Shown piece after piece: positions 9,361 through 60,753 of a stretch of 64,000 nucleotides of DNA. Below the pieces are notes generated by a model that worked only from the letters and a program-made list of their open reading frames with translations, had not been told where the DNA came from and did not search any database. Origin of the DNA: an uncultured Desulfobacterium sp. (GTDB lineage: Bacteria > Desulfobacterota > Desulfobacteria > Desulfobacterales > Desulfobacteraceae); assembly GCA_963674605.1 (NCBI GenBank), contig OY771474.1, forward strand, positions 3,032,341 through 3,096,340. The letters run 5' to 3'. A program made the position numbers and the translations under genes. Each line of letters starts with the position of its first letter. Positions within the stretch are counted from its first letter, which is position 1.

Positions 9361-9443
9361 ATAAAAACAGATTAACAGGGATGTTGTCAAATAATTTTGC
9401 AGACCATCATCATCTCCGCCTGATATTGTAATCCATTCCCACT

Positions 9444-17748: not shown

Positions 17749-17763
17749 AAAAGGAGAATTTAA

Positions 17764-18954
17764 ATGTCAAAGGTATTAATCGTCGGAGCCGGGGGAGTGG
17801 GCAGTGTCACCACCCACAAATGCGCCCAGCTATCAGATATATTTACGGAAATTGTACTTGCCAGCCGAACCCTGTCCAAATGTGATGCCATTGCCCGGGA
17901 CATCCTTGAACGCACCGGCAAACAAATCACCACGGCCTGTCTGGATGCGGATAATGTAAAAGAAACCATTGCCTTCATTGAAAAGGTAAAGCCCGATGTG
18001 GTGGTGAACCTGGCCCTGCCATACCAGGACCTGCCCCTGATGGATGCCTGCCTTGCCACCGGGGTGGATTATCTGGACACGGCCAACTACGAGCCCCCGG
18101 ATGAGGCAAAGTTTGAATATAAATGGCAATGGGCCTACCGGGAAAAGTTTGAAGCAAAGGGACTCATGGCCCTGCTGGGTTCCGGGTTTGATCCAGGCGT
18201 CACCAATGTCTTCTGCGCCTGGGCCCAGAAGCATCACTTTGATGAAATTCATACCCTTGACATCATTGACTGCAATGCCGGGGACCACGGCCAGCACTTT
18301 GCCACCAACTTCAACCCGGAAATCAACATCCGGGAGATCACCCAGCGGGGCCGGTACTGGGAGCATGGCGAATGGGTGGAAACCGATCCCCTGTCCTGGT
18401 CCATGGACTATGATTTCCCCGAAGGCATCGGCAGCAAGAAATGCTATCTCATGTACCATGAGGAGCTGGAATCCCTGGTGATGCATCTCAAGGGCCTTAA
18501 ACGAGCCCGGTTCTGGATGACCTTTTCCCAGCAGTACTTAACCCACCTGAAAGTTCTTGAAAATGTGGGCATGACCGGCATTGACCCTGTAAATTACAAC
18601 GGCCAGGAGATTATTCCGTTAAAGTTTCTCAAGGCGGTGCTGCCGGAACCGGCATCCTTAGGTCCCCTTACCCAGGGTCGCACCTGCATTGGATGTTTAC
18701 TAAAGGGTATCAAGGACGGCAAAGAAAAAACCCTGTATGTATATAATATCTGCAGCCATGAAGAGGCCTTCAAAGAGGTGGGCTCCCAGGCCATCTCCTA
18801 CACCACCGGCGTACCAGCCATGATCGGTGCCATGCTCATGCTCCAGAAGAAATGGCATAAAAAAGGGGTGTGGCACATGGAACAGTTTGATCCAGATCCC
18901 TTCATGGATGCCTTGAACGCCCATGGCCTTCCCTGGAAAGCGGTGGAACTTTAA
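17764..18954 (+). CDS. Carboxy(nor)spermidine dehydrogenase (saccharopine dehydrogenase family)
   Basis: N-terminal Rossmann motif VGAGGVGS. Saccharopine-dehydrogenase-like C-terminal domain. Positioned between speA and nspC. Confidence 0.8.
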   Translation: MSKVLIVGAGGVGSVTTHKCAQLSDIFTEIVLASRTLSKCDAIARDILERTGKQITTACLDADNVKETIAFIEKVKPDVVVNLALPYQDLPLMDACLATGVDYLDTANYEPPDEAKFEYKWQWAYREKFEAKGLMALLGSGFDPGVTNVFCAWAQKHHFDEIHTLDIIDCNAGDHGQHFATNFNPEINIREITQRGRYWEHGEWVETDPLSWSMDYDFPEGIGSKKCYLMYHEELESLVMHLKGLKRARFWMTFSQQYLTHLKVLENVGMTGIDPVNYNGQEIIPLKFLKAVLPEPASLGPLTQGRTCIGCLLKGIKDGKEKTLYVYNICSHEEAFKEVGSQAISYTTGVPAMIGAMLMLQKKWHKKGVWHMEQFDPDPFMDALNAHGLPWKAVEL

Positions 18955-20123
18955 TGGATTACCCTGTACCCACGGCCTTTGATACCACAGCTTTACCCAC
19001 CCCCTGCTTTGTGGTGGATGAGGCGGCACTCGTGCACAACCTGGAGATTCTGGCATCGGTGAAGGAACAAACCGGATGCCGGATTCTCCTGGCCCTGAAG
19101 TGCTTTGCCATGTTCCGGGTCTTTCCCCTGCTTTCAAAGACCCTGGACGGCATCTGCGCAAGTTCCCCCCACGAGGCAAGGCTTGGAAGGGAAGAATTCG
19201 GCCGGGAGGTACACACCTTTGCTGCGGCCTATGCTGAAAGTGATATCAAAAGCCTGTGTGATACCACCGATCATCTGGTGTTCAACTCCTTTGCCCAGCT
19301 GGATCGCTTCCGGCCCCTGGTGGGGGACCTGACAAAAAAAAACGGCCGTCACATTGAACTTGGCATCCGCATCAACCCGGAGCATTCCGAAGGGGCCGTG
19401 CCCATTTACGATCCCTGTTCACCGGGATCCCGGCTGGGTATCCGGAAAAAGGCCTTTCCGGAAAACTTCCCCAAAGACATCACCGGCCTTCACTGGCACA
19501 ATCTGTGCGAACAGGATGCCGACTGCCTGGAACGTACTGTAACGGCCGTTGAAGAACGCTTTGGAGAATATATCCCCAAAGTGAAATACGTTAATTTCGG
19601 CGGGGGACATCACATCACCCGTCCGGGATATGATCTGGATCTGCTGGTGAAAATCATCCGGGAATTCAAGGCCAGATGGGGCAAAAACGTAATTCTTGAA
19701 CCAGGAGAAGCCGTGGCCCTGAACGCCGGTGTGCTGGTGGCAACGGTGCTGGACATTATAAAGGCGGACATGGACATTATCCTCATGGACGCATCGGTGC
19801 CCACCCACATGCCCGATGTTCTGGAGATGCCCTACCGTCCCCACATCGTGGGCTCAGCTCTCCCCGGGGAAAAGCCTTATACCTGCCGCATCGGCGGCCC
19901 CTCCTGCCTGGCAGGAGATGTGGCCGGGGAATATTCCTTTGATGCCCCCCTGTCGGTGGGGGACAAACTCATCTTCACGGACATGGCCATCTACACCATG
20001 GTAAAAACCAACACCTTTAACGGAGTACAGCTGCCGGCCATTGCCCTTTTGCCCGCCGGAAAAACCCAGCCGGAAATCATAAAAACCTTCGGGTATGAAG
20101 ATTTCAGATCCAGGCTTTCATAA
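18954..20123 (+). CDS. nspC: Carboxy(nor)spermidine decarboxylase
   Basis: Alanine-racemase-fold decarboxylase (group IV) sequence. The start overlaps the dehydrogenase stop. Polyamine gene context. Confidence 0.8.
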   Translation: MDYPVPTAFDTTALPTPCFVVDEAALVHNLEILASVKEQTGCRILLALKCFAMFRVFPLLSKTLDGICASSPHEARLGREEFGREVHTFAAAYAESDIKSLCDTTDHLVFNSFAQLDRFRPLVGDLTKKNGRHIELGIRINPEHSEGAVPIYDPCSPGSRLGIRKKAFPENFPKDITGLHWHNLCEQDADCLERTVTAVEERFGEYIPKVKYVNFGGGHHITRPGYDLDLLVKIIREFKARWGKNVILEPGEAVALNAGVLVATVLDIIKADMDIILMDASVPTHMPDVLEMPYRPHIVGSALPGEKPYTCRIGGPSCLAGDVAGEYSFDAPLSVGDKLIFTDMAIYTMVKTNTFNGVQLPAIALLPAGKTQPEIIKTFGYEDFRSRLS

Positions 20124-20129
20124 AAAGGG

Positions 20130-20805
20130 CATTATGCCGCCTCCGAGGACTGTCCTGCCCCCGGAGGCTCTGATGTCGATGGTCAAGAAACCATTTCCTT
20201 ATGACCTACATGGCAGTAATCACCTGTCACAACGAATAATGAAAATGGCATTATACCGCCGCCCCCCCCGACGGGCAATGGACCCGGACCGGAACTGTAG
20301 ACAGCTCAATTGTCCGGTTCCCATTGCCCATCGGGGGAGCGGCTCTGCTGAAGTTGCCTTGGAGGCTGCCTTTTCATATAAACCCGCATGTCCTGGTGGA
20401 CACAACGAAGATAGAAAATGGTAAATGCCATTATGCCGCCCCTCCCCCGACGGGCAATGGTCCCGGACCGGAACTGTAGACAGCTCGATTGTCCGGTTCC
20501 TATTGCCCATCGGGGGAGGGGCTCTGCTGAGGTCGACTTGAAGGCTACCTTTTCATACAACATGCATGGCAGTAGACACCTGCAACAACGAAAGTTGAAA
20601 CTCTAATCATTGCAGCACCTTGGAGGGATTTTCATATAAAACATACATGGCTGCTACCACCAGCCACAACGAAAAATGAAACTCTAATCATTGCAATTCT
20701 TTAAACGGAGTTTCATATAAAAACCCACATGGCAGTAATTACCTGCCACAACGAACAATGAAAAAGCAGTTGCTATCAGTATCCAGCACCTCCATATAAA
20801 AAAAA
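20130..20805 (+). repeat. Tandem array of about 8 modular structured elements ('C-family'): 1 degenerate + 2 full long-hairpin modules interleaved with 5 small-hairpin modules
   Basis: Recurrent unit: CATG-hairpin (e.g. tggcag-taattac-ctgcca) + ACAACGAAnAnTGAAA + variable insert + TTTTCATATAAA. Long-module core: ggcattatgccgcccctcccccgacgggcaatgg...ctattgcccatcgggggaggggctctgctgagg. Confidence 0.85.
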
Positions 20806-20820
20806 TAGATCGGAAAAAAA

Positions 20821-21705
20821 ATGAATAATACCCCTGATTTTATTGACTCGGAACTCACCCTCCGGGATGAAAACAATTCCCGGTTCCATGTCATTCCCGT
20901 TCCCATGGAAACCTCTGTATCCTATGGGGGGGGAACGGCCCAGGGCCCACGGGCCATTCTCATGGCCTCCCAACAGCTGGAAGCCTGGGATGGCCAATGC
21001 CTGCCCCTGGAGCAGGGCATTCACACAACAGGGCCTGTGGATTGCAAAGGAGCCGTTGAAGATATCCTGGCCCGCATTGAAAAGGCCGTATCAAAAGCCC
21101 TGGCCTTGAATGCCCTTCCCGTAATTCTCGGGGGGGAACACACCGTAACCCTGGGAGCATTGCGGGCGTTGAAAAAGGCATCATCCAAGGCTTTTGGCAT
21201 TGTACAGGTGGATGCCCATGCCGATCTCCGGGACACCTACGAGGAAAACCCTTTAAGCCATGCCTGCGTCATGCGAAGGGCCACCCAGGACCTTGGGATT
21301 CCCCTGGTTCAGCTGGGGGTTCGTGCCCTGTGCCGGGAAGAGGATCACTATCGTCGGGAAAAGAACATCACCTTTTTTGATGCCCGGCAGCTGCATCTCC
21401 AGGGCATTCCCGATGAGCTGTTGCCCCCGGATTTTCCCGATGACATTTACATCACCCTGGATGTGGACGGACTTGATCCATCTGTGATCCGGGCAACGGG
21501 CACACCGGTTCCCGGAGGACTTGGGTGGCAAGACACCCTGACCTTGCTTGAAAAAAGCATGCACAATAAAAAAGTGGTGGGGTTTGATGTTGTGGAACTG
21601 GCCCCCATGGCCGGAGACCATGCATCGGATTTTGCGGCGGCCCAACTGGTGTACAGCACCATGGGCATGATTAACAGGGCATGGGAAACTGCCCATGACG
21701 CTTAA
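20821..21705 (+). CDS. speB: Agmatinase (ureohydrolase family)
   Basis: Mn-binding motifs GGEHTVT, DAHADL and DVDGLDP. Polyamine cluster context. Confidence 0.85.
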   Translation: MNNTPDFIDSELTLRDENNSRFHVIPVPMETSVSYGGGTAQGPRAILMASQQLEAWDGQCLPLEQGIHTTGPVDCKGAVEDILARIEKAVSKALALNALPVILGGEHTVTLGALRALKKASSKAFGIVQVDAHADLRDTYEENPLSHACVMRRATQDLGIPLVQLGVRALCREEDHYRREKNITFFDARQLHLQGIPDELLPPDFPDDIYITLDVDGLDPSVIRATGTPVPGGLGWQDTLTLLEKSMHNKKVVGFDVVELAPMAGDHASDFAAAQLVYSTMGMINRAWETAHDA

Positions 21706-21803: not shown

Positions 21804-24062
21804 TCATTCCGGCTTAATGATCTGAACCGCAAAGGGCTGTTTCTGGTCCAGATGAACATCGCTCTGGGGAAAAGCAATGACAATACCTTCTTTGTTGAAG
21901 AGCTCATCAATTTTAAATCGAATGGCACTTTCCACCTGTTTTTTCTCCAAAACCAGATGAATCATGACCCAGAAATACAGTTCAAATACCAGGGCATTGT
22001 CTCCAAATTCTGAAAACAGCACAAAGGGTTCAGGGGTTTTAAGAACCCTGGAATTTTCTTTTGCCGCTGAAACGAGCAGTTTTTCCACAATCCTTACAGG
22101 AGAGCCATAGGCAACACCCAGGGATATTTTTGTCCGAATCGTATTGTCAGACAATGTCCAATTGGTGATATTTCTTTCAAGAAAACTGCTGTTTGGCACC
22201 AGCTTATGAACATTTTCTCCGGTTCGAACCCGGGTACACCTGGCACCGATCTCCTCAACCTTTCCAAGGAGGCCATCCACTTCAATGAGATCGCCGATGT
22301 TAATGGGACGCTCGCCCAGGATCATAAACCCTGAAATAAAATTATTGATCAGATTCTGGGCACCAAACCCCACACCAATGGCAACCGCACCACCCAAAAA
22401 CGCAAAGGCTGTCAGGGGAATATTAACAATCCTGAGGGCAAAGAGCACCACCAGCAGGTATGCCGCATAGGAGAGCATTTTATGGACCGCTGATGCGGTT
22501 GTCTCCTTGAATTGGGACTTTTCAAGGAACCTCACCCGCACGACATTCAATACAAATCGCGCAACAATAAATCCCACGGCCAGAATCAAAAATGCAACAA
22601 GGATTTTTCCCAGACTCACAGGACGATCATCCACGACCCAGATTTCAATTCTCCAGAATTCTCTGAATTTCTCCTTCAGACCCGAAACATGATCCGTTAC
22701 GGTGAGTTTCCCCTTCACCGATTTAATCTGATCAAAAAGGCGTTTCTCAATCTGGTCCGTGGACAGAATAACCGATTGATGCTCAAGACGTTTTTCAAGG
22801 CGTAACCGCAGGGCATCTATCTGGGATGACAGAGAACGCTTGATTTCAGGTTCAATGCCCTCATTTTGCATGAGCCCCTGAAGGGCTCCGGTTTTTTTCT
22901 GGATGGACACCAGATAGGTCTGCTGAATCTGTAAGGATTGATTTATATTACCGATGATGCGTTCTGTCTGTTTCTGGAGAGTGGATAATTGATCAGGAGA
23001 CAGCGTTTCCTTTATAAGGAAGTATCTCTGTTGCCAGGCGGCTTTCTGGCGATCCAGCATGACCAGGGTTTCTTCCTTAATCTCCAACATTACCGAATAG
23101 GTTTTCCGCCATTCCTCCCTGGCCTTTAAGTTGGCGTCAGAGAAATCTCTTTCTTTGACCTGGGTTGCCTTTTCAAAGCGCTGACGTGCCGCCATCCACT
23201 TGATCTCAGCGGCGTTAAGGTCTGCTTTGTTTTTCCCCATCTCTTTGTGGAGAGATTCCTTGAGCTGATCAATATTTGCCAGCTGACGCGCCAGGTCTTC
23301 ATCATCATATTGAAGGTTGGATCGAACAAAGGCCTCCTGCTCATTGATCATTCCCATCTGCTGGGTGATAAGCTCTTTTTCAAGGGCCATTTTCTTGAGT
23401 TCAGTCTTTCTTGCACTGATCCTGATCTTGAGATATTCCTGAACCAGGGTTGCCATGTCAATGGCCCAGACAATCTTACTTTTTTCCTCCTCCTGGGCCT
23501 TGTCCAGGAGTTCCCTGTGAAGTCTGAGCGATTTATTGACCGCTTCCAGCTCAGTGATATCATCCTCCATGGATTTTCTGACCAGATCCATGGAGATATC
23601 AATGGTGTTCCCGTTTTTTTCCAGATCAAAACGTTCTGCGAGCAGGGAATCATGGAAAGTTAACGGGTATGGAGGCCTTTTGGCCATGCCGTTTTGACGA
23701 TAATGTTCATAACGTGCCTGAAATTCACTGTTTTCCTTTTCAATACCTTCAATGCCTTCAACCGCAGCTGCAAGTTTTTCATAGGAGGTCTTTAACGAAA
23801 TAAGGTTGGATAGACGGATCTCCTCATCTTCGGGTTTGATGCCAAACTCCTGGACAAGTTTATCGCCCTGGGAACGGGATGCCTTTTCTATGGAAATTTC
23901 CAGATCCTTTATTTTCTGTGGGATGACCTCAATATCAAGGGCAGCATCCGGCAGACCTGTTTTTATTGGTGAATCCTGACCCATGGCCAGGGAAACACCA
24001 AATAAGAACAGGATTAAAACCCACAAACAATGGGTATGAAAATAACGCTTCATCCGTGTCAT
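21804..24062 (-). CDS. Mechanosensitive ion channel, MscK/MscS-family, with a long N-terminal periplasmic coiled-coil domain
   Basis: Signal peptide, ~450-aa coiled-coil region, multiple TM helices, and an MscS core (GDLIEVDGLLGKVEEIGARCTRVRTGENV..VPNSSF). Confidence 0.85.
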   Translation of the reverse strand: MTRMKRYFHTHCLWVLILFLFGVSLAMGQDSPIKTGLPDAALDIEVIPQKIKDLEISIEKASRSQGDKLVQEFGIKPEDEEIRLSNLISLKTSYEKLAAAVEGIEGIEKENSEFQARYEHYRQNGMAKRPPYPLTFHDSLLAERFDLEKNGNTIDISMDLVRKSMEDDITELEAVNKSLRLHRELLDKAQEEEKSKIVWAIDMATLVQEYLKIRISARKTELKKMALEKELITQQMGMINEQEAFVRSNLQYDDEDLARQLANIDQLKESLHKEMGKNKADLNAAEIKWMAARQRFEKATQVKERDFSDANLKAREEWRKTYSVMLEIKEETLVMLDRQKAAWQQRYFLIKETLSPDQLSTLQKQTERIIGNINQSLQIQQTYLVSIQKKTGALQGLMQNEGIEPEIKRSLSSQIDALRLRLEKRLEHQSVILSTDQIEKRLFDQIKSVKGKLTVTDHVSGLKEKFREFWRIEIWVVDDRPVSLGKILVAFLILAVGFIVARFVLNVVRVRFLEKSQFKETTASAVHKMLSYAAYLLVVLFALRIVNIPLTAFAFLGGAVAIGVGFGAQNLINNFISGFMILGERPINIGDLIEVDGLLGKVEEIGARCTRVRTGENVHKLVPNSSFLERNITNWTLSDNTIRTKISLGVAYGSPVRIVEKLLVSAAKENSRVLKTPEPFVLFSEFGDNALVFELYFWVMIHLVLEKKQVESAIRFKIDELFNKEGIVIAFPQSDVHLDQKQPFAVQIIKPE

Positions 24063-24412: not shown

Positions 24413-24590
24413 TATACTCCTCCTGAAATTAAATCTGAAATTCTATATATTGTGATGATGGCCTGCTCCCGGCCCGGTTACGAAACCACGGTTTGATTGT
24501 TTATTATACACCAAAAACGCCTTAAAAAAGAAGAGCTCTTTTCATTAAAATTATGTTTTAAAATATTTTATAAAATATTTTATAAAATGA

Positions 24591-24619
24591 TTGACATGCA
24601 TTCATATATATTTTATCTT
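24591..24619 (+). promoter_or_regulatory. Candidate sigma-70 promoter for the HisD-like cluster
   Basis: TTGACA - 17 nt - TATCTT, preceded by an AT-rich direct repeat (aaatattttata x2). It would give a ~180-nt leader. Confidence 0.4.
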
Positions 24620-24805: not shown

Positions 24806-26116
24806 ATGGAATACATTAAAAAAGCCCTGAAAACCGCCACAACCAATACCCAGGAAATCCGCACCATTGTAAAAAGCCTTCTGTCAGATATTGAAGCCGG
24901 CGGAGAAGCCACCGTCCATGAACTGGCCCGGAAATTCGATAACTGGGAAGGAGATTTCATTCTCAGTGAAGAAAAGAAACAAAAACTCATTGCAACGGTG
25001 CCGGAAAGTGTAAAAGAAGATATACGCTTTGCCCACGCCCAGGTCAGTGGTTTTGCCAAGGCCCAACGACAGAGCATCACCGAATTTGAACACGAAACCC
25101 TGCCCGGAGTACGACTGGGCCAAAAAATAATCCCCATGGATGTGGCCGGATGCTACGTTCCGGGGGGGCGGTTTGCCCATGCCTGTTCCGCCATCATGAG
25201 CGTGGCCACAGCCAAGGCTGCAGGGGTTAAAACCATCATTGCCTGCTCCCCTCCCCGGGGGAATTCCATTGCACCGGCGGTTGTGTATGCCCTGGAAGTT
25301 GCCGGAGCCGACATTATCCTGGAAATGGGCGGCGTCCAGGCCGTTGCCACCATGGCCTTTGGTCTTTTCACCGGAAAACCTGCCAACATCCTTGTGGGAC
25401 CGGGAAATGCCTATGTGGCAGAAGCCAAGGCCATCCTTTCTTCAACGGGCAAATGCACCATTGACGTATTTGCAGGTCCCACCGAATCGGCCATCATCGC
25501 CGATGCCACCGCCGACCCCATGACCGTGGCCGTTGATCTGGTGTCCCAGGCCGAACACGGATACGATTCTCCGGTGTGGCTGTTCACCGACGACAAGGCA
25601 CTGGGGGAAAAGGTGCTTGAAATCATGCCCAGGGTCATCGCTGATCTGCCCGATCCCCAGGTGGCCCAAAGCTCCTGGGAAAACTACGGAGAAATAATTC
25701 TGTGCAAAGATCGTCAAGAACTCTGCCGGATAAATGATGATTATGCGGCAGAGCATGTCCAGGTAATGGCCCAAGATCTTGACTGGTGGCTGGCAAACCT
25801 CAACGCCTATGGTTCTCTGTTTCTCGGGGAAGGCAGCACCGTACCCCATGGAGACAAATGCTCCGGTACCAACCATATTCTGCCCACCAAAAAGGCCGGA
25901 TACTACTCCGGTGGTCTCAATGTACATAAATTCCTTAAAATATACACATGGCAGGAAATCAGCAAAGACGCCAACCGGGTGATCAGCGCTGCGGCATCGA
26001 GACTCTCCCGGGTGGAGGGTATGGAAGGTCATGCCAGGGCCTGTGACTGGCGGCTGAGAAAATATTTTCCCCAGAAAAATTGGAATTTTGAGGTATACGA
26101 CCAGGAAAAATATTAA
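24806..26116 (+). CDS. Histidinol-dehydrogenase-family NAD-dependent 4-electron alcohol-to-acid dehydrogenase (HisD/HpsN-like paralogue; not in a his context)
   Basis: GPGNAYVAEAK, SQAEHG, EH and GD..SGTNHILPT, which align with motifs around the E. coli HisD Zn ligands. No flanking gene is a his gene. Confidence 0.8.
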   Translation: MEYIKKALKTATTNTQEIRTIVKSLLSDIEAGGEATVHELARKFDNWEGDFILSEEKKQKLIATVPESVKEDIRFAHAQVSGFAKAQRQSITEFEHETLPGVRLGQKIIPMDVAGCYVPGGRFAHACSAIMSVATAKAAGVKTIIACSPPRGNSIAPAVVYALEVAGADIILEMGGVQAVATMAFGLFTGKPANILVGPGNAYVAEAKAILSSTGKCTIDVFAGPTESAIIADATADPMTVAVDLVSQAEHGYDSPVWLFTDDKALGEKVLEIMPRVIADLPDPQVAQSSWENYGEIILCKDRQELCRINDDYAAEHVQVMAQDLDWWLANLNAYGSLFLGEGSTVPHGDKCSGTNHILPTKKAGYYSGGLNVHKFLKIYTWQEISKDANRVISAAASRLSRVEGMEGHARACDWRLRKYFPQKNWNFEVYDQEKY

Positions 26117-26269
26117 TACCGGATGAGGGGTGCCCCGCCGGGTGCCCCTTTGCCATGCCGGAATAATACCTCTGTTCACGGAACCCAAGAATTTATTTTT
26201 TTGAACAAGGCCCCCCCGCAGACAACATATCAATGCGAGGATCAAGCCCGAATAACAGGAGATGTTCAC

Positions 26270-27481
26270 ATGGAAAAAACTGCTGCTGTATTTAAAAAAG
26301 ATTTTACCCTGCAGGAACCCATCTGCGAAGAAGGGATAGAAAAGGCACTTGAAATCCTGAAATCGGGAAAACTCCACCGGTACAATGTCGATGCCGGAGA
26401 AAAGGGAGAGGCAGCCCTCCTGGAAGAAGAATTCGCCGCCTACATGGGCAAAAAATACTGCCTTGCCTGTGCATCCTGCGGCAGCGCCATGTACATTGCC
26501 CTTAAAAGTGCCGGAGTCAAACCCGGGGACAAGGTATTGTGCAACGCCTACACCCTGGCCCCAGTGCCCGGTGCCATTGAAAATACCGGTGCCACCATTG
26601 AACTTGTGGACATCACCGACGACTACACCATTGACCTTAATGATCTGGAAAAAAAAGCCGCCCCGGCGGATGTCAAATGGTTTATGCTTTCCCACATGCG
26701 CGGCCACATCGCCCACATGGACCGCATCATGGAGATCTGCACCACCCACGGTCTGGTGCTCATTGAAGACTGTGCCCACACCATGGGGGCCACCTGGGAC
26801 GGGAAAAAATCCGGCAGCTTCGGCAAAGCAGGCTGTTTCAGCACCCAGACCTACAAGCACATGAATTCCGGTGAAGGCGGGCTTCTGGTCACCGACGATT
26901 CCGATCTCATTGCCCGGGCCATCATTCACTCCGGGTCTTACATGCTCTATGAACGGCACACCTCAAGACCTGCCATGGAGACCTTTGAACCACTGAAAAC
27001 CATGGTCCCCAACTACTCCAGCCGCATGGATAATCTAAGGGCCGCCATTTTAAGACCCCAGCTGCGGGATCTGGACACCCAGTGCCGACGGTGGAATGAG
27101 CGCTATGATCTTCTGGAAAAGGCCCTGGCCGCCATTGACGGCATCACCTGTCCCCAAAGAGATCCAAGGGAAAAATATGTGGGCAGTTCCATCCAGTTCT
27201 CCCTCAACAGCCAGGATGCCGGGACCATCCAGAATTTTCTGGCAGCCTGTCTGGAACAAGGGGTGGAACTCAAATGGTTCGGCAACAAGGAGCCCGTGGG
27301 ATTTACCAGTGCCTATGAGAGCTGGAAATACTTGGGAAATCTGCCGGATCTGCCCAACACCAGACGAATTCTCGCCGTGATGTGTGACATGCGAATTCCA
27401 TTGACATTTTCCCTTGAAGACTGTCAACTGATAGCTGAAATAATTGGTGAAGTTGCACAAAAGGTTCTTAAAAGGCCTTAA
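26270..27481 (+). CDS. DegT/DnrJ/EryC1/StrS-family PLP-dependent aminotransferase
   Basis: FSTQTYKHMNSGEGG (PLP-Lys motif of the family) and IEDCAH. The start was moved to ATG 26270 (AGGAG 9 nt upstream) because the track ORF's N-terminal 49 aa look non-coding. Confidence 0.8.
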   Translation: MEKTAAVFKKDFTLQEPICEEGIEKALEILKSGKLHRYNVDAGEKGEAALLEEEFAAYMGKKYCLACASCGSAMYIALKSAGVKPGDKVLCNAYTLAPVPGAIENTGATIELVDITDDYTIDLNDLEKKAAPADVKWFMLSHMRGHIAHMDRIMEICTTHGLVLIEDCAHTMGATWDGKKSGSFGKAGCFSTQTYKHMNSGEGGLLVTDDSDLIARAIIHSGSYMLYERHTSRPAMETFEPLKTMVPNYSSRMDNLRAAILRPQLRDLDTQCRRWNERYDLLEKALAAIDGITCPQRDPREKYVGSSIQFSLNSQDAGTIQNFLAACLEQGVELKWFGNKEPVGFTSAYESWKYLGNLPDLPNTRRILAVMCDMRIPLTFSLEDCQLIAEIIGEVAQKVLKRP

Positions 27482-27617
27482 TAAACTGCCCCCACACGCC
27501 ATTCAGGCCCCATGCGCTGTGGTAAAAATGACATTTACATGTAAAACAGTTAAAGACAACATCCATAACGGTCTGAACATCCAGTGCTATTTTTGATTTT
27601 CAGCCAAGGAGAAAAAC

Positions 27618-27998
27618 ATGAACAAAAAAACAGTCAATACCGCAAATGCCCCCGCTGCCATCGGCCCTTATTCCCAAGGCGTTGCCACAGGTAACCTGTT
27701 GTTCACCTCGGGCCAGCTGCCCATTGATCCGGCCACGGGAAAAATCCCCGATGTTTCCATTGAGGAACAGGCCCACATCGTATTTAAAAACCTCACTGCC
27801 ATTGCCGAGGAGGCCGGTACAAGCCTTGACAATGCCGTGAAAACCACCGTTTTTCTGTCGGATATAAATAATTTCCAGGCCGTAAACGGAGTCTATGCCC
27901 TTTACTTTAAAGAACCCTTTCCTGCCAGAAGTGCCTTCCAGGTGGCTGCTCTGCCCCTGGGTGCGGCCCTGGAAGTAGAGGCAATCTTTCAATTGTAA
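27618..27998 (+). CDS. ridA: RidA/YjgF-family reactive enamine/imine deaminase
   Basis: APAAIGPYSQG..LFTSGQLP, ARSAFQVAALPLGA.LEVE. Confidence 0.9.
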   Translation: MNKKTVNTANAPAAIGPYSQGVATGNLLFTSGQLPIDPATGKIPDVSIEEQAHIVFKNLTAIAEEAGTSLDNAVKTTVFLSDINNFQAVNGVYALYFKEPFPARSAFQVAALPLGAALEVEAIFQL

Positions 27999-28021
27999 GA
28001 AATATTTAAGGAACCTGAAAA

Positions 28022-29020
28022 ATGAACTTCACCAAATTTCCCAGAAGACACTATGTTAAGACCCCCACACCCCTTGAAGCCATGCCCCGTCTGAGCAAGG
28101 CCCTGGGAGGCGATGTTAATCTTTACATCAAACGCGACGATCTGCTCCCCGGTGCCGCCGGCGGTAACAAGACCCGTAAACTTGACTTCTGCATCGCCGA
28201 TGCCCTTGCAAAAGGAGCCGATGCCATCATCACCTGCGGTGCCGTGCAGTCCAACCACTGCCGTCTCACCGCCGCATGGTCTGCCAAGGAAGGACTGGAC
28301 TGCCACCTTGTGCTTGAAGAGCGGGTAAAGGGCTCCTACAAAAAAGAGGCCAGTGGAAATAATTTCCTGTTTGAACTGCTGGACGTTAAAACCATCGGTG
28401 TGGTGGCCGCAGGCTCTGACATGATGGCAGAGATGACAAAAAAAGCCGAAGCCCTGAAAGCACAGGGCAAAACCCCCTACATCATCCCCGGCGGTGCCTC
28501 CAACAGCATTGGCGCACTGGGATATGTTGCCTGCGCCGAAGAGACCATGAATCAGCTCAACGATATGCACCTTTCCATTGATCACATTGTGGTTCCCTCG
28601 GGATCTGCCGGTACCCACGCCGGTATGGTGGTGGGCATGACCGGTGTCAATGCAAACATTGCCATCTCCGGCATGAACGTATCCAGACCCAAAGCTGTCC
28701 AGGAAGAGATTGTTTACAAACTGGCCGTTGAAACCGCTGAAAAAGTGGGCGTAAAAAGCGGTGTGGCCCGGGAAGATCTTGTGTGCTTTGACGGCTATGT
28801 GGGACCGGGATACTCCATCCCCACCGACTCCATGGTGGAGGCGGTAAAGCTCTTCGCCATGAACGAAGCCATCCTTCTGGACCCGGTTTACTCCGGCAAG
28901 GCTGCTGCAGGACTCATTGATCTGGTGAGAAAAGGACATTTTCCCAAAGGAGCTAATGTGCTCTTCCTTCACACCGGCGGATCTCCGGCCCTGTATGCTT
29001 ATCTCGATACGTTCAGATAA
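28022..29020 (+). CDS. PLP-dependent lyase of the D-cysteine desulfhydrase / ACC deaminase / cysteate sulfo-lyase (DcyD/CuyA) family
   Basis: Colinear similarity to E. coli DcyD as I recall it: TPLE, KRDD, GGNKTRKL (PLP Lys), AVQSNH, SGSAGTHAG, LDPVYSGKA, HTGG. Confidence 0.85.
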   Translation: MNFTKFPRRHYVKTPTPLEAMPRLSKALGGDVNLYIKRDDLLPGAAGGNKTRKLDFCIADALAKGADAIITCGAVQSNHCRLTAAWSAKEGLDCHLVLEERVKGSYKKEASGNNFLFELLDVKTIGVVAAGSDMMAEMTKKAEALKAQGKTPYIIPGGASNSIGALGYVACAEETMNQLNDMHLSIDHIVVPSGSAGTHAGMVVGMTGVNANIAISGMNVSRPKAVQEEIVYKLAVETAEKVGVKSGVAREDLVCFDGYVGPGYSIPTDSMVEAVKLFAMNEAILLDPVYSGKAAAGLIDLVRKGHFPKGANVLFLHTGGSPALYAYLDTFR

Positions 29021-29034
29021 TTCTAAATCAATAC

Positions 29035-29061
29035 CCCCTGAGCTAAAGGCTCAGGGGTTTT
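29035..29061 (+). terminator. Rho-independent terminator after the DcyD/CuyA-like gene
   Basis: cccctgagc-taaag-gctcagggg followed by tttt. Confidence 0.7.
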
Positions 29062-29078
29062 CGGCATCCTTCATTCCC

Positions 29079-29140
29079 ACTTTACACTTTCATGGGATGA
29101 ATGGCCATTTTCTGGCACCCGCTCCTGAAAAGTGTAAAGT
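29079..29140. repeat. Perfect 12-bp inverted repeat separated by 38 nt
   Basis: actttacacttt (29079-29090) pairs with aaagtgtaaagt (29129-29140). Confidence 0.6.
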
Positions 29141-29261
29141 ACTTTTGATGTAATATGAATGATGCCGGGTTTTCTTGCTGTTTTTCTATAATTGCCACGG
29201 GCAGAGTGTCTTCTAAATCCAGCCTGCTCAAAACAAATAATGGGTCGCAGACGCGGAGCCA

Positions 29262-29492
29262 AATGGCATTATGCCCCCCCTCCCCCGACGGGCAATGGAC
29301 CCGGACCGGAACTGTAGACAGCTCGATTGTCCGGTTCCTATTGCCCATCGGGGGAGGGGCTCTGCTGAGGTAGACTTGAAGGCTACCTTTTCATATAACC
29401 TACATGGCTGTAACCACCAGCCACAACGAAAATAGAAAAAGCAGGGTATACGAATACCCAGCACCAAGAACCCGCTTTTTCATATAAAAAAA
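29262..29492 (+). repeat. C-family array: one long-hairpin module + one small-hairpin module, ending 9 nt before the racemase start codon
   Basis: aaatggcattatgccccccctcccccgacgggcaatggacccggaccggaactgtagacagctcgattgtccggttcctattgcccatcggggg...ttttcatataa, then catggctgtaaccaccagccacaacgaaaatagaaaa...tttttcatataaaaaaa. Confidence 0.85.
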
Positions 29493-29501
29493 GACAGGAT
29501 A

Positions 29502-30227
29502 ATGAACCAGGAAAAAGAAAAAATAGTGGGTATTCTGGGCGGCATGGGACCCGAAGCCACCGTGGATCTCATGCAGCGCATCATCCGCCTCACACCGGCC
29601 ACCGATGACATTGATCACATCCGATGCATTGTGGACAACAACCCCAAGGTGCCCTCCCGGATCAAGGCCATCATTGAAGGCGACGGGGAAGACCCAGGAC
29701 CCTGCATGGCTGACATGGGCAAACGATTGGAAACCTGGGGGGCGGATTTTCTGGTCATTCCCTGTAATACAGCCCATTTCTACTATGATGCGGTGAACCA
29801 GGCGGTGAGCATCCCCGTCCTTCATCTAATTGATTTGGTGGTGGAAAAGGTGAAAAAGACCTATCCCCAGAGTCAGCGGGTGGGCATTCTGGCATCTCCG
29901 GCCATCCGCATCACCGGGCTGTACCAGAAACGCCTGGCACCCCTTGGCATTGAGCCGGTATATCCAGATCAAAAACACCAGGAAATCCTTTTCAAGGTAA
30001 TCAAAGATGTTAAAGCAGGGAACACAGGAGAAGATGTTCTGGAACGTTACAAAGCTGTGTGCCGCAACCTGATGTCCCGTCAGGCGGGACATGCCATTGT
30101 GGCCTGTACCGAACTCAGCGCACTTGAAGGCCCTCTGCCCATGGACACCATGGATGCCGCGGAACTGCTGGCCATGGAAATTGTGGATGTGATCAAAGGG
30201 GGAAAGGAACTTGACAAAACACCATGA
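29502..30227 (+). CDS. Aspartate/glutamate-racemase-family amino-acid racemase
   Basis: GILGGMGPEAT. Both catalytic Cys motifs are present (PCNTAH and ACTELS). Confidence 0.85.
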   Translation: MNQEKEKIVGILGGMGPEATVDLMQRIIRLTPATDDIDHIRCIVDNNPKVPSRIKAIIEGDGEDPGPCMADMGKRLETWGADFLVIPCNTAHFYYDAVNQAVSIPVLHLIDLVVEKVKKTYPQSQRVGILASPAIRITGLYQKRLAPLGIEPVYPDQKHQEILFKVIKDVKAGNTGEDVLERYKAVCRNLMSRQAGHAIVACTELSALEGPLPMDTMDAAELLAMEIVDVIKGGKELDKTP

Positions 30228-30401
30228 ATATGATGTTGAACTCCAGGGAAAGAATAGAATTTGATCGTCGGGTAAAACGCGGTGATCACGCTTGATCACA
30301 ACATCGACCACTCTTGGAAGAGGATTGCCTTGAGCCGTTCGGGAGAAACTGACATCATCGCGGAAAAGGAGCCGTATTCTTTGGCTGGAAAAAAATCTTC
30401 C

Positions 30402-31034
30402 ATGAAATCTCTCATGGCCTATGAAAAAATCAGAGACATCATACTTTCCGGTGAGAAACTGCCGGGAACCCGTCTTATCCTTTCGGATCTTGAGTCGGAA
30501 CTGGGTATCGGCCGGGGTCCCATAAGAGAAGCCTTGATGCGACTGGATCGCTCCGGTCTGGTCAAAAATATCCCCTACAAGGGTGCTTTGGTGGCCACTC
30601 CTCCCAAACAAAAGGAAATTCTTCATATCTACGACATACGTGTGGACCTGGAAGTCAAGCTGGCCCAGGAAGCCATGTCCAACTTGTCTCCAACCGATCT
30701 GGCTGAACTTGAGGCCCTGCACCGGGAAATGCTGGAAATCCCCCCCAACTATTACAGCCTGGATCGGCAGTTTCACAATATCATCTACCAGGCTTCGGAT
30801 CTGCCCCACCTGCACAGTATTGTAAAAAAACTGATCCTGCCCGTGGAAACCTTTCTCAATGCCTACCACCAAAAAACAGAAGACTATCAGCGATTCAACC
30901 AGGAGCATGCCCGAATTATTTCCAGCCTGAAGGAACAAGATCCCCAGGGCCTTAAAGAGGCCCTGACCAATAACATTCAAGGCGGACTTGAAATAATAGA
31001 AAAAACCTACAGCAGGATGGTCAGAAGACCATGA
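30402..31034 (+). CDS. GntR-family (FadR/FCD subfamily) transcriptional regulator
   Basis: Winged HTH (AYEKIRDIILSGEKLPGTRL..SDLESELGIGRGPIREALMRL) plus a helical FCD-like C-terminal domain. The start at ATG 30402 is preferred over the track start at 30282. Confidence 0.75.
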   Translation: MKSLMAYEKIRDIILSGEKLPGTRLILSDLESELGIGRGPIREALMRLDRSGLVKNIPYKGALVATPPKQKEILHIYDIRVDLEVKLAQEAMSNLSPTDLAELEALHREMLEIPPNYYSLDRQFHNIIYQASDLPHLHSIVKKLILPVETFLNAYHQKTEDYQRFNQEHARIISSLKEQDPQGLKEALTNNIQGGLEIIEKTYSRMVRRP

Positions 31035-31037
31035 CCA

Positions 31038-31541
31038 TCAGCCGGGGCAGGGAGGGTCATTTAAATCCCTTCGCAGTTTCTGAAGGGTCAGATGGGTTTC
31101 TATCCGGGCCAGCAGCTCCTCTGCCTGGAAGGGTTTTGTAAGATAATCCACCCCGCCTGCGGAAAAACTTTTCACCTTATCGTGGACATTATCCAAGAAC
31201 GCACCCGATATGGGCGCATTCCCATTTTCCTGGTTTGGTCACAATATGGTTTGTTTGTCATAGTTGGTGGGGCCAACGGGGTCAGGCTATGTGGTATTAG
31301 AGCCTGAGTTTTTATCAGGCTCTATGATTTTGTCAAGAACCTGTGTTTAAAGGCAAATTTAAACAAAAGCGCCAATAACGCAAGCCTGACCCCTCTCTGA
31401 TTAAGCGCGAACCGGGAAAATGGGAATGCGCCCCACCCGATATCCTTCCTCTCCCAGTATTCTTACAAAAAACTTTACATTTTCCCGGATATCGTCAACC
31501 ACCACGATATTACCCTTACAAGCCGCTGCATTTTCTTTCAC
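31038..31541 (-). pseudogene. Decayed response-regulator (receiver) gene: N- and C-terminal fragments in different frames, separated by a type-B MITE
   Basis: Minus-strand N-fragment (GTG at 31541): KENAAACKGNIVVVDDIRENVKFFVRILGEEGYRV. C-fragment: FLDNVHDKVKSFSAGGVDYLTKPFQAEELLARIETHL...*. The central ~55 aa of a receiver domain are absent. Confidence 0.7.
31212..31433. mobile_element. MITE-like element, type B (222 bp), flanked by a 10-bp direct repeat
   Basis: TIRs are gggcgcattcccattttcctgg ... ccgggaaaatgggaatgcgccc. CACCCGATAT lies at 31202-31211 and 31434-31443. Confidence 0.85.
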
Positions 31542-36767: not shown

Positions 36768-36796
36768 TTGACAGACTGTAAAGAGGGTGTTTAAAT
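36768..36796 (+). promoter_or_regulatory. Candidate sigma-70 promoter upstream of the TonB-system cluster
   Basis: TTGACA (36768-36773) - 17 nt - TTAAAT (36791-36796). Confidence 0.45.
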
Positions 36797-36888
36797 ACCC
36801 CCGATCACATAAGTGCCAAGAAGGCGCAAGTAAAATTGAAGTTGAAGTAATAAAAGCTGTAGTGGTTGAATTAATGCCAGGCCAAGAA

Positions 36889-36940
36889 GGCCAGCCACCG
36901 GTACCTCCGGTGAACTGGAATTCCTGGCCTTTTTTGTTTT
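36889..36940 (+). terminator. Intrinsic-terminator-like hairpin + U-tract inside the leader (attenuator or 3' end of a ~135-nt sRNA)
   Basis: ggccag...caccgg-tacct-ccggtg...ctggcc followed by TTTTTTGTTTT. It lies 40 nt upstream of the first CDS of the cluster. Confidence 0.5.
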
Positions 36941-36978
36941 CAGGGCATGTTGACACAGTCCCAAGCGAGGGAAAAACC

Positions 36979-37761
36979 ATGCATAAAAACCGAGTCATCC
37001 CGTATCTGACAGTTCTGGCGTGTTTTCTGACGACCATGTCCCCACCCTGGCCGGTCCAGGCCGGGGAAGTGAAAAAACAGATTGAAGCACCGGTACACAA
37101 GGCGGTCCAGATCGAGCAGAAAACCCAGGCAGCCCAGTCCCAATGGCGAAATGAAAAAGAGAAAAAAACCCAAATATTTGATGAGCTGGAAACACAGATC
37201 AAAGCCCTTGAAGTAGAAAAGGCCCGGCAGATGGATGAACAACAGGCCTTAACGGCAGGGATTGAACGAAAAAAGCAGGAACTGTGGGATATCGAGCAGA
37301 TTTCAGCCCAGATCTCCCCCTTTCTGGATCAGCTCCTTGGGCGAATCCAGGATTTTTCCCGCCGGGATCTGCCCTTTTTGCAGGAGGAGCGCACCAGCCG
37401 AATGTCGGCTCTGATAAGCCTGTCCCATGACCCCAAGGTGCCGGTGAGCGAACGGTTTAGAAAAATCATGGAAGCCCTGATGGTGGAAGCGGAATACGGC
37501 CAGACCATTGAAGTCCATCAGCAGACCATTAACCTGTCAGGCCAGGATACCCTGGTGAACATCTTCAGACTGGGCCGCCTGAATCTCTTTTATCAGACCC
37601 TGGACAAGCACTACTGCGGGGGGTACAACACCGCAAAAAAAGACTGGGAGCCACTTGACATTGCCCATCTCAAAGACATTCAGGCCGCAATTGACATGGG
37701 GTCCAAACGTAAACCCGTGGAACTCCTGGACCTGCCCCTGGGAAGGATTGCCGTCCAATGA
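36979..37761 (+). CDS. DUF3450-type coiled-coil periplasmic protein (TtpB-like component of TonB2-type systems)
   Basis: Signal peptide, long coiled coil, and first position in a ttpB-ttpC-exbB-exbD-tonB-ttpD-like gene order. The start was moved to ATG 36979. Confidence 0.6.
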   Translation: MHKNRVIPYLTVLACFLTTMSPPWPVQAGEVKKQIEAPVHKAVQIEQKTQAAQSQWRNEKEKKTQIFDELETQIKALEVEKARQMDEQQALTAGIERKKQELWDIEQISAQISPFLDQLLGRIQDFSRRDLPFLQEERTSRMSALISLSHDPKVPVSERFRKIMEALMVEAEYGQTIEVHQQTINLSGQDTLVNIFRLGRLNLFYQTLDKHYCGGYNTAKKDWEPLDIAHLKDIQAAIDMGSKRKPVELLDLPLGRIAVQ

Positions 37762-40076: not shown

Positions 40077-40090
40077 TCTCAGGAAGAATC

Positions 40091-41199: not shown

Positions 41200-41208
41200 G
41201 GTGACCCC

Positions 41209-59713: not shown

Positions 59714-59716
59714 CAA

Positions 59717-60748: not shown

Positions 60749-60753
60749 ATTAG

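Follow-up and report, generated by a model that had tools for sequence, protein, structure and literature searches.

A cluster of six genes was found on the forward strand of the analyzed window, a stretch of 64 kb from a Desulfocicer-like member of the Desulfobacteraceae. Judged by sequence comparison, the probability is about 0.85 that this cluster is a copy of an operon for D-cysteinolate degradation reported in December 2025, with a predicted role in the dissimilation of D-cysteinolate to pyruvate, ammonia, and respirable sulfite. The genes are hpsN, cuyC, ridA, cuyA, cuyB, and a gene for a regulator of the GntR/FCD type. All six ORFs listed in an earlier note on this DNA were confirmed, with corrected starts for cuyC and the regulator. 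D-cysteinolate (D-2-amino-3-hydroxypropane-1-sulfonate) is an algal and marine osmolyte. The genes hpsN-cuyC-cuyA-cuyB were characterized as a D-cysteinolate pathway in a study of enzymes from Bilophila sp. 4_1_30 and of the physiology of Desulfovibrio litoralis (PMC12814064; JBC, December 2025). Because this operon is already in print, the pathway is not novel, and the statement of the earlier note that a combination of HisD-like protein, DegT protein, racemase, and lyase had not been described is out of date; the chemistry itself was well read there. Thus, the cluster is real, by its sequences functional, and already known.

In the predicted pathway, the PLP enzyme CuyC, which has the DegT fold, would racemize D-cysteinolate to L-cysteinolate. 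HpsN, which has the HisD fold and uses Zn and NAD+, would oxidize the primary alcohol to the acid in two steps, releasing L-cysteate and 2 NADH. L-cysteate would be converted to D-cysteate by the CuyB-like two-Cys racemase and then cleaved by CuyA, a PLP-dependent β-eliminating lyase, to sulfite and 2-aminoacrylate. The enamine/imine would be hydrolyzed to pyruvate and NH3 more rapidly through RidA. Pyruvate would enter central metabolism, and sulfite would serve as the electron acceptor for dissimilatory sulfite reduction, bypassing ATP-dependent sulfate activation. An operon for D-cysteinolate dissimilation would therefore also provide for dissimilation of L-cysteate. The steps of CuyC, HpsN, and CuyA are predicted from 68-72% identity to assayed enzymes, and we infer the RidA step, how the genes are regulated, and what becomes of sulfite. 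It is the taxonomy of the host that suggests sulfite respiration; no dsr or apr genes were found in the 64 kb window. The earlier note had likewise proposed oxidation of a cysteinolate-type C3 amino-alcohol sulfonate to cysteate by the HisD-like enzyme, racemization and CuyA-type cleavage of cysteate, capture of the enamine by RidA, and use of sulfite as the electron acceptor, all in agreement with the published pathway. Of the two products it had named, sulfite and sulfide, only the former is retained.

The product of hpsN (24806-26116) belongs to the NAD+/Zn-dependent four-electron dehydrogenases of the HisD fold (Pfam: PF00815, 420 bits) and is predicted to be an L-cysteinolate dehydrogenase forming L-cysteate. 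It scored 517 bits with the Cupriavidus pinatubonensis HpsN structure 8V35, aligned over almost its full length, and about 220 bits with the structures of HisD. The earlier note had held that clustering with true HisD would speak against its reading; the protein groups with HpsN. His125 corresponds to the diagnostic, HpsN-specific His126, the Zn-binding and catalytic residues are conserved, and the sulfonate-recognizing His and Lys residues are present. Identity to the assayed HpsN of Bilophila sp. 4_1_30 is 72.5% across 436 aa. Since homologues of HpsN also oxidize (R)-DHPS, the substrate is not fixed by sequence alone, and (R)-DHPS may be an additional substrate.

The second gene, cuyC, was assigned to positions 26270-27481, in an ORF open from 26123, and encodes a PLP enzyme of the DegT/DnrJ/EryC1 fold (Pfam: PF01041). 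Its start was moved to 26270, in agreement with a gene call of 403 aa (P0001), homologues of 397-404 aa, and an AGGAG 8 nt upstream. The protein is predicted to be a PLP-dependent cysteinolate racemase interconverting the D- and L-forms. It is 68.3% identical (559 bits) to EGW44077.1, encoded by the DegT-family gene inside the hpsN-cuyC-cuyA-cuyB cluster of Bilophila sp. 4_1_30, which we take as the assayed CuyC; the best-scoring sugar aminotransferase structure gave only 115 bits. In public annotations, the DegT homologues are named "dTDP-4-amino-4,6-dideoxygalactose transaminase". The Bilophila CuyC exchanged the α-proton of D-cysteinolate, and NADH was formed with it in an HpsN-dependent manner, PLP and NAD+ being the only cofactors listed, with no amino acceptor (PMC12814064). 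The earlier note had proposed an aminotransferase with an amination or deamination step; this was abandoned, the 68%-identical Bilophila orthologue being a PLP-dependent cysteinolate racemase.

An alternative route, half proposed in the earlier note, would start from (R)-DHPS, oxidized by HpsN to (R)-sulfolactate and further to sulfopyruvate, with the DegT protein as a sulfopyruvate/cysteate aminotransferase, followed by CuyB and CuyA. HpsN homologues do oxidize (R)-DHPS, the Bilophila enzyme more slowly (PMC12814064), proteins of the DegT fold are usually aminotransferases, and conversion of sulfopyruvate to cysteate has been described in the literature. This route is nevertheless unlikely, given the α-proton exchange by the Bilophila CuyC and its feeding of HpsN with no listed amino acceptor. 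Moreover, neither a sulfolactate dehydrogenase (SlcD/ComC), already reported as missing from the cluster in the earlier note, nor a homologue of HpsO or HpsP was found in the cluster or elsewhere in the window.

The protein encoded by cuyA (28022-29020) is a PLP-dependent lyase of the DcyD/ACC-deaminase family (Pfam: PF00291), predicted to act as a D-cysteate sulfo-lyase yielding pyruvate, NH3, and sulfite. It passes the NCBIfam equivalog model NF052482 (533 bits; cutoff 450) and is below the cutoff of every equivalog model for D-cysteine desulfhydrase or ACC deaminase. Its identity is 71.7% to the assayed CuyA of Bilophila sp. 4_1_30 and 71% to the CuyA locus of Bilophila wadsworthia. The gene ridA (27618-27998) encodes an enamine/imine deaminase (TIGR00004, 167.6 bits; cutoff 106.25), predicted to hydrolyze the 2-aminoacrylate/iminopyruvate released by CuyA. 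In 30 of the 131 cuyC loci, it is flanked by cuyC and cuyA, and RidA is also present in the clusters of B. wadsworthia and Bilophila sp.

The racemase gene, cuyB (29502-30227), encodes a PLP-independent two-Cys enzyme of the Asp/Glu family (Pfam: PF01177). Both catalytic Cys, pointed out in the earlier note, have aligned counterparts in 1JFL, the aspartate racemase of Pyrococcus horikoshii. The protein scored 283 bits with the CuyB model NF052483 (cutoff 190) and 170 bits with the generic asp_race model; the CuyB model is not specific, a true aspartate racemase also passing it with 246 bits. Identity is 32% to BwCuyB, the only characterized CuyB, 29% to CuyB of Bilophila sp. 4_1_30, and 38% to an archaeal aspartate racemase. 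With only 32% identity to BwCuyB, the step from L- to D-cysteate depends on the HMM and on conserved linkage, and on this basis the protein is predicted to be a cysteate racemase. A gene for cuyB is found downstream of cuyA in 37 of the 131 loci, and the statement in the earlier note that cysteate racemases adjoin cuyA proved correct (PMC11193023).

The resemblance to aspartate racemase, as close as that to BwCuyB, fits another reading, by which a different 2-amino alcohol would be oxidized to an amino acid, racemized by an Asp-type racemase, and cleaved by a lyase of the D-cysteine desulfhydrase or D-serine type, with RidA cleaning up. A partial activity of CuyA on D-cysteine and D-serine has been reported (PMC11193023). 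We consider this reading very improbable in view of the sulfonate-recognizing His and Lys in HpsN, the scores of the lyase above the CuyA cutoff and below all those for DcyD and ACC deaminase, and the 68-72% identity of the three well-conserved enzymes to those of sulfonate pathways. Finally, chance adjacency of housekeeping genes, namely a histidine-biosynthetic hisD and genes for an ACC deaminase and a sugar-nucleotide aminotransferase, as the transaminase annotation and the hisD model TIGR00069 (399 bits; cutoff 243.8) might imply, is effectively refuted by the preference for HpsN over HisD, by conserved synteny, and by the surroundings, where no histidine, sugar-nucleotide, or ACC genes occur, as the earlier note had observed; the hisD model is not discriminating, because the assayed Bilophila HpsN passes it too (405 bits).

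Another 21 loci share the exact order of the six genes, each with an annotation as Desulfobacterales or "delta proteobacterium". Of the 131 cuyC loci, 36 have hpsN, cuyA, and cuyB no more than 8 kb from cuyC. With this repetition in 21 independent loci and this linkage, the gene order is beyond chance, and the synteny suggested as a check in the earlier note is strong. The dN/dS values against the closest full-length relative (L002) are 0.05-0.15 for all six genes. No homologues of TRAP, APC, SDF, or BCCT transporters or of the TauE exporter were found within the 64 kb, and the earlier remark that the cluster has neither a transporter nor a sulfite exporter was borne out. The only transport genes that Pfam detected in the window are those of an FtsX-type ABC pair, a TonB system, and, 27 kb away, a Liv-type ABC system, none of them related. 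Linked uptake of the sulfonate type in relatives is represented by TRAP transporters in Desulfobacterales, adjoining most of the clusters but missing here, and in Bilophila by TauE and an APC permease.

The spacer between cuyA and cuyB is 481 bp long, compared with 75 bp in the closest relative and 31-308 bp in relatives where cuyB directly follows cuyA. Directly 3' of the cuyA stop codon lies a G+C-rich hairpin followed by UUUU (29035-29057, forward strand; -19.2 kcal/mol, z -3.5), also found in the scan. The terminator of the earlier note is thus a true hairpin, terminator-like or attenuating; the closest relative has a different hairpin at the equivalent position. The spacer is enlarged by a MITE/REP-like intergenic repeat (29261-29400, about 140 nt) that forms a hairpin (-74 kcal/mol, z -6.9). 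Copies with 91-98% identity were found at 39933-40070, 20423-20593, and 20243-20381, and a partial copy at 49855-49911. The repeat is missing in the closest relative, and its insertion here is lineage-specific. The "C-family array" of the earlier note is a single copy of this repeat. Because of the hairpin and the repeat, co-transcription of cuyB and gntR with the upstream genes is uncertain.

The regulator gene (30402-31034, in an ORF open from GTG 30282) encodes a GntR protein with an FCD effector domain (Pfam: PF00392, PF07729), most likely starting at ATG 30402 and having 210 aa. It is the conserved final gene of the cluster, with 56-86% identity among syntenic loci. A motif scan revealed two tandem ATTTTATAAAAT palindromes on the forward strand (24565-24576 and 24577-24588), the only matches in the 64 kb, where 0.29 were expected at up to one mismatch. 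In 305 loci totaling 4.1 Mb, the 600 bp upstream of hpsN or dctP contain 56 of the 64 exact ATTTTATAAAAT sites. Of the 59 loci with a GntR of the window type, 34 have the motif, versus 8 of the 246 without such a regulator. The palindromes are likely the site for the GntR/FCD regulator of the cluster, a candidate operator. A sigma-70-like promoter (TTGACA-17 nt-TATCTT, 24591-24619, forward strand; 10 of 12 consensus positions) begins 2 nt 3' of them and about 190 nt 5' of hpsN, and the same layout of palindrome and TTGACA recurs in many related loci. The regulator probably controls the hpsN promoter through these palindromes adjoining the -35 box, with cysteinolate or cysteate as its probable effector.

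Among known systems, the P. horikoshii aspartate racemase 1JFL shares the two-Cys mechanism with the racemase of the window, but the order of scores is reversed (374 bits with asp_race for the aspartate racemase, above its CuyB score), and, unlike it, the window-type racemase is always linked to cuyA. HisD (Escherichia coli 1K75, Medicago 5VLD) resembles HpsN in the PF00815 fold, the octahedral Zn, and the four-electron oxidation of a 2-amino alcohol to an L-amino acid. HisD lacks an equivalent of His126, usually having Leu at this position (PMC11382572), and differs in its his operon context. The hpsRNOUP-suyAB system of C. pinatubonensis (HpsN structures 8V35/8V36; PMC11382572) has the fold, the Zn site, and the sulfonate-binding His and Lys in common with HpsN here. 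There, however, SuyAB cleaves the sulfolactate formed from the substrate, (R)-DHPS; in the window, CuyC, CuyB, and CuyA take the place of hpsO/hpsP and suyAB.

The L-cysteate cluster of B. wadsworthia, with genes for an SDF transporter, cuyB, ridA, cuyA, and gntR (Liu et al., J Biol Chem 2024; PMC11193023), matches the pathway here in its lower half, with a racemase, a D-cysteate sulfo-lyase, RidA, and a GntR-type regulator. Having neither hpsN nor cuyC, it offers no entry for cysteinolate, whereas the window has both genes and no linked SDF transporter. The Bilophila sp. 4_1_30 cluster differs in the position of ridA, which follows gntR there and lies between cuyC and cuyA here, in its APC permease and TauE exporter, and in having neither the cuyA-cuyB repeat nor, as in the Bilophila loci generally, the ATTTTATAAAAT motif. 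With identities of 29 and 27% to their Bilophila counterparts, the racemase and the regulator are probably both non-orthologous replacements. In contrast, the four enzyme genes agree in their order and all lie on one strand, followed by a GntR/FCD gene, and the predicted chemistry and the physiological role of sulfite as electron acceptor match those of the window.

The six plus-strand ORFs (24806-31034) were found where the earlier note had placed them, with revised starts for the DegT and regulator genes, and all of the families that it assigned were confirmed with Pfam and NCBIfam (PF00815, PF01041, TIGR00004, PF00291, PF01177, and GntR plus FCD). The best-supported reading, with a probability of about 0.85, is that this cluster encodes the published D-cysteinolate pathway. 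The genes cuyA and cuyB are often accompanied by a gene for an HpsN homologue and by a DegT-family gene named cuyC (Liu et al., J Biol Chem, December 2025, PMC12814064). The CuyC of Bilophila sp. 4_1_30 exchanged the alpha-proton of D-cysteinolate, as a racemase does; the HpsN of this strain converted L-cysteinolate to cysteate and did not oxidise the D isomer, and its CuyA converted D-cysteate to sulfite and pyruvate (PMC12814064). Additionally, the cluster-bearing Desulfovibrio litoralis grew with D-cysteinolate as the source of the electron acceptor sulfite (PMC12814064). For B. wadsworthia, CuyB and the D-selectivity of CuyA had been established in an earlier paper of the same group (PMC11193023). 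A regulator, RidA, and a transporter are not mentioned in the main text of the 2025 paper (PMC12814064). Thus, the system is already known, and the statement of the earlier note that the combination was not a described pathway does not hold. The chemistry that this note proposed was largely correct; the exception is the step of the DegT protein, taken there for an amination or deamination, which would be a racemisation.

For the window, the following route is predicted. CuyC would racemise D-cysteinolate to L-cysteinolate, which would be oxidised by HpsN to L-cysteate. The CuyB-like racemase would turn L-cysteate into D-cysteate, CuyA would cleave the latter to sulfite and aminoacrylate, and RidA would finish the conversion to pyruvate and NH3. 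The sulfite would then be respired, and the hpsN promoter would be gated by the GntR/FCD protein. Sulfite or sulfate respiration by the host is suggested by its closest named relatives, Desulfocicer niacini and D. vacuolatum, both Desulfobacteraceae. No dsr, apr, or sat genes were found among the window ORFs scanned with Pfam.

The gene cuyC (26270-27481, plus strand) starts at 26270 (gene call P0001, 403 aa), with AGGAG 8 nt upstream and homologues of 397-404 aa. Its product has the DegT/DnrJ/EryC1 fold (PF01041, 210 bits). The Lys of TQTYKHMNSGEGG shows no variation in alignment A1 and matches the PLP Lys region of 7B0D. No CuyC model of NCBIfam matched this protein; the best match was PseC, with 127 bits vs. 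a cutoff of 423. The published CuyC similarity cluster is bounded by E <= 1e-110 and about 45% identity or more to the Bilophila CuyC (PMC12814064). With 68.3% identity to EGW44077.1 of Bilophila sp. 4_1_30 (559 bits, E reported as 0.0), the window protein falls within these bounds. This reference was found via cluster membership and then via contig JH114233.1; a protein search with a gut Desulfovibrio CuyC had no named Bilophila protein among the matches listed. Homologues of HpsN, CuyA, and CuyB are all encoded at most 3 ORFs from cuyC, inside the limit of 5 ORFs, and this arrangement is kept in relatives. The best-supported prediction for this protein is thus a cysteinolate racemase. An alternative route through DHPS and sulfopyruvate would use the DegT protein as a transaminase; we consider this route improbable.

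The D-cysteate sulfo-lyase CuyA, a PF00291 protein of the DcyD/ACC-deaminase family, is assigned by the equivalog model NF052482, with 533 bits vs. a cutoff of 450. Its scores are below the cutoffs of the sister NCBIfam models, namely DcyD (295-306 vs. 429-610), ACC deaminase (257 vs. 392), and XcbE (290 vs. 450). It is 71.7% identical to the CuyA of Bilophila sp. 4_1_30 and 71% identical to that of the B. wadsworthia ATCC 49260 locus. These scores speak against a route for a non-sulfonate amino alcohol or a D-amino acid, which is very improbable. RidA is recognised by TIGR00004 with 167.6 bits vs. a cutoff of 106.25. At about 57751-58086 (plus strand), just upstream of a Liv-type (branched-chain-amino-acid-type) ABC transporter at 58248-63112, lies another RidA-like coding region; its tblastn identity to the Bilophila RidA is 42%.

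HpsN (24806-26116) has the histidinol-dehydrogenase fold over its full length (PF00815, 420 bits, residues 10-417; Pfam) and is 72.5% identical to the assayed HpsN of Bilophila sp. 4_1_30 over all 436 residues. In C. pinatubonensis HpsN (8V35), His126 mediates sulfonate recognition and sets HpsN apart from HisD (PMC11382572). The window His125 (in GGRFAH) aligns with this residue (in GRYAH). The Zn ligands and catalytic residues Gln248, His251, His411, Asp352, Lys353, Glu318, His319, and His359 are all conserved in the phmmer alignment with 8V35, inspected by eye; among the functional residues compared, only Ser226 is exchanged, for Thr. The HisD-like protein does not cluster with bona fide HisD, a grouping that the earlier note had named as fatal to its proposal: it scores 517 bits against the Cupriavidus HpsN structures vs. 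201-221 bits against seven HisD structures (phmmer, PDB). It also passes the TIGR00069 hisD model with 399 bits, as does the assayed Bilophila HpsN with 405 bits; therefore, the hisD label does not discriminate between the two enzymes. A reading of the cluster as housekeeping hisD and sugar-aminotransferase genes, for which such labels are the evidence, is effectively excluded by us. All three alternatives are thus weakly supported or effectively excluded, and the best-supported prediction for HpsN is an NAD+-dependent L-cysteinolate dehydrogenase. Public names for CuyC homologues are those of sugar aminotransferases. Public databases label the cluster proteins 'histidinol dehydrogenase', 'dTDP-4-amino-4,6-dideoxygalactose transaminase', and 'D-cysteine desulfhydrase', so genome-based surveys of the sulfur cycle will miss these genes.

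The racemase (29502-30227) has the Asp/Glu racemase fold (PF01177), and both catalytic Cys residues recognised earlier, in PCNTAH and ACTE, align with those of the aspartate racemase of Pyrococcus horikoshii (1JFL). The characterised B. wadsworthia cysteate racemase, BwCuyB, was found in the ATCC 49260 locus and is 51% identical to the CuyB of Bilophila sp. 4_1_30 (50.8% published). The window racemase is 32% identical to BwCuyB over 244 aa, which falls short of close homology and of strict membership by homology to a characterised enzyme. It is 28.6% identical to the CuyB of Bilophila sp. 4_1_30 and 38% identical to the true aspartate racemase of P. horikoshii. The NCBIfam model NF052483 (racemase_CuyB, cutoff 190 bits) was compared with the generic asp_race model. 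The window racemase prefers the CuyB model (283 vs. 170 bits), and the reverse is true for the P. horikoshii enzyme (246 vs. 374 bits). BwCuyB barely passes the CuyB model, with 191.8 bits (asp_race, 123 bits), and the CuyB of Bilophila sp. 4_1_30 fails it, with 175 bits (asp_race, 106 bits). Since an aspartate racemase passes and a Bilophila CuyB fails, NF052483 is not specific, and caution is needed in its use. Racemases of the window type follow cuyA in 37 of 131 cuyC-anchored loci among the matches listed, in Desulfobacterales and Gammaproteobacteria. The HMM preference and the constant linkage to cuyA favour a cysteate racemase, and on these grounds the step would work like CuyB. Aspartate racemases may act on cysteate as well; a search of the available literature on this activity returned nothing usable.

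Conservation of the cluster was analyzed in genome scans anchored on CuyC, which gave, among the matches listed, 131 loci flanked on each side by 4.5 kb or more. Within 8 kb of cuyC, hpsN was found in 62 of these loci, cuyA in 45, cuyB in 37, ridA in 30, and the window-type gntR in 33; hpsN, cuyA, and cuyB were found together in 36. The exact six-gene order of the window, for which the earlier note had asked in related genomes, occurs in 21 of the 131 listed loci, all annotated as Desulfobacterales or 'delta proteobacterium'. Desulfocicer vacuolatum DSM 3385 and three species of Desulfoluna are among them. The named organisms with the closest CuyC among the matches listed are Desulfocicer niacini (94% identity) and D. 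vacuolatum (83%), a genus in Desulfobacteraceae. A locus of D. litoralis DSM 11393 was absent among the matches listed (alignment-based scan; D. cuneatus CuyC scan). The closest full-length relative among the matches listed, an uncultured 'Desulfobacterium' MAG (L002), has 91% DNA identity across hpsN-cuyA. All six genes have dN/dS of 0.05-0.15 relative to L002, which argues that they are maintained by selection. The full operon with RidA and GntR is widespread among Desulfobacterales and evolves there under purifying selection.

Variant clusters were also observed. In Desulfofustis sp. PB-SRB1 (L037, 2223-12906), a cluster without hpsN, cuyA, and cuyB contains, after ATTTTATAAAAT and a TTGACA promoter, genes for a class-V aminotransferase, cuyC, gntR, and a TauA/SsuA-like ABC transporter, with a divergent short-chain dehydrogenase and a TauE exporter nearby. 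Similar cuyC-gntR pairs are present in the loci L024, L025, L044, and L052, and cuyC without adjacent hpsN in L029 and L036. We speculate that clusters of the L037 type could serve a different, transaminative route from cysteinolate, e.g., towards a DHPS-type intermediate.

A TRAP transporter (dctPQM) is encoded directly upstream of hpsN in most Desulfobacterales relatives, and between cuyC and ridA in Desulfoluna. It was found neither in the window nor in the three closest relatives, D. vacuolatum included. Queries with TRAP DctPQM, APC permease, SDF, BCCT, EamA, and TauE had no tblastn match in the window or in the loci of these relatives. With no TRAP, APC, SDF, BCCT, or TauE homologue within 64 kb, uptake and sulfite handling have no local explanation. 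Adjoining hpsN on its upstream side is a gene for an MscS-family channel (752 aa, 21804-24062, minus strand). It was considered as an osmolyte-related partner and rejected, since L001 and L002, the two closest relatives, lack this gene in an otherwise collinear region; the gene marks a lineage-specific insertion or deletion. Two further gene groups lie in the window. A polyamine-biosynthesis-like run (15817-21705, plus strand), conserved in L001 and L002, encodes an arginine decarboxylase, a saccharopine-dehydrogenase-family protein (carboxynorspermidine dehydrogenase-like), an Orn/DAP/Arg decarboxylase-family protein, and an agmatinase/arginase-family protein. A TonB-dependent uptake cluster (36787-44986), unrelated to the pathway, encodes two DUF3450/ExbB-like proteins, a further MotA/ExbB-family protein, TonB, a TPR protein, and a TonB-dependent receptor.

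The regulator, most likely starting at ATG 30402 (plus strand), has an N-terminal GntR winged helix (PF00392, 44.6 bits) and a C-terminal FCD domain (PF07729, 74.1 bits). Only two exact copies of the palindrome ATTTTATAAAAT are present in the window. They form a tandem pair at 24565-24588, and a promoter-like site, TTGACA-17-TATCTT, follows 2 nt downstream of this pair, ahead of hpsN. In 305 fetched loci (4.1 Mb), 64 exact sites were found, many loci having the site directly beside TTGACA. Most sites (56 of 64) are at most 600 bp upstream of hpsN or dctP. Seven of the other 8 come from cuyC-anchored loci without hpsN ahead of cuyC (Desulfofustis-type and one Desulfoluna MAG), and most of these seven adjoin a TTGACA-like sequence. 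The palindrome was found in 34 of 59 loci with the window-type GntR vs. 8 of 246 loci without it. No conserved palindrome that could be a second operator was found upstream of gntR. As a testable model built from sequence, we infer both a pairing of ATTTTATAAAAT, as candidate operator, with the GntR/FCD regulator and an effector for the latter.

The spacer between cuyA and cuyB is 481 bp long in the window, 75 bp in L002, and 31-308 bp in relatives with cuyB directly after cuyA. The hairpin after cuyA, noted previously as a terminator, is real (29035-29057, -19.2 kcal/mol, z -3.5). The excess length corresponds to a repeat of about 140 nt (29261-29400) that forms a long hairpin (-74 kcal/mol, z -6.9). 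The window contains at least four further intergenic copies, among them those at 39933-40070, 20243-20381, 20423-20593, and 49855-49911, with 91-98% mutual identity. The repeats fold into very stable long hairpins (-74 to -80 kcal/mol, z about -7), and copies are also present in L001 and D. vacuolatum (L042). In the whole window, no Rfam family scored up to its gathering threshold, so the spacer hairpins and the repeat correspond to no known RNA; the repeat probably represents a mobile element of the MITE/REP type in this lineage. Directly upstream of cuyB, both the window (29435-29481) and L002 (10755-10800) have a short hairpin with a T-run after it; thus, a stem-loop ahead of cuyB may be conserved independently of the repeat insertion. 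A second, unrelated family of intergenic repeats (up to 223 bp, 96% identity) is represented at 31211-31433, 9443-9663, 53442-53637, and 13436-13628; shorter pieces lie near 3640-3740 and 50112-50212. One copy lies inside the 955-bp spacer between the GntR gene and a downstream hybrid histidine kinase gene.

Cysteinolate is an abundant algal osmolyte, and its catabolism matters for the sulfur cycle in the sea and in the gut; from its breakdown, sulfate reducers obtain sulfite and are spared the ATP-costly activation of sulfate. The residual novelty of the window lies in the divergent racemase lineage, the operator motif, and the absent transporter. The Desulfobacterales operon could be a distinct variant that combines an independent recruitment of an Asp racemase, GntR/FCD control at the ATTTTATAAAAT palindrome beside the -35 box, and absence of the linked TRAP system in the Desulfocicer lineage, a tentative reading to which we give slightly under even odds. 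If true, cysteinolate catabolism would gain its first regulator-operator model, uptake in the Desulfocicer lineage would proceed via a carrier other than a linked TRAP system, and the motif would be a lead that may help to locate the missing, unlinked transporter. Compared with the window, the locus of Bilophila sp. 4_1_30 (JH114233.1) has a different order: APC permease, hpsN, cuyC, cuyA, cuyB, TauE, GntR/FCD, and RidA. The window regulator is 27% identical to the GntR/FCD protein of this strain, and the window racemase, 29-32% identical to the Bilophila CuyB proteins and closer to the archaeal aspartate racemase, may have been recruited independently of them.
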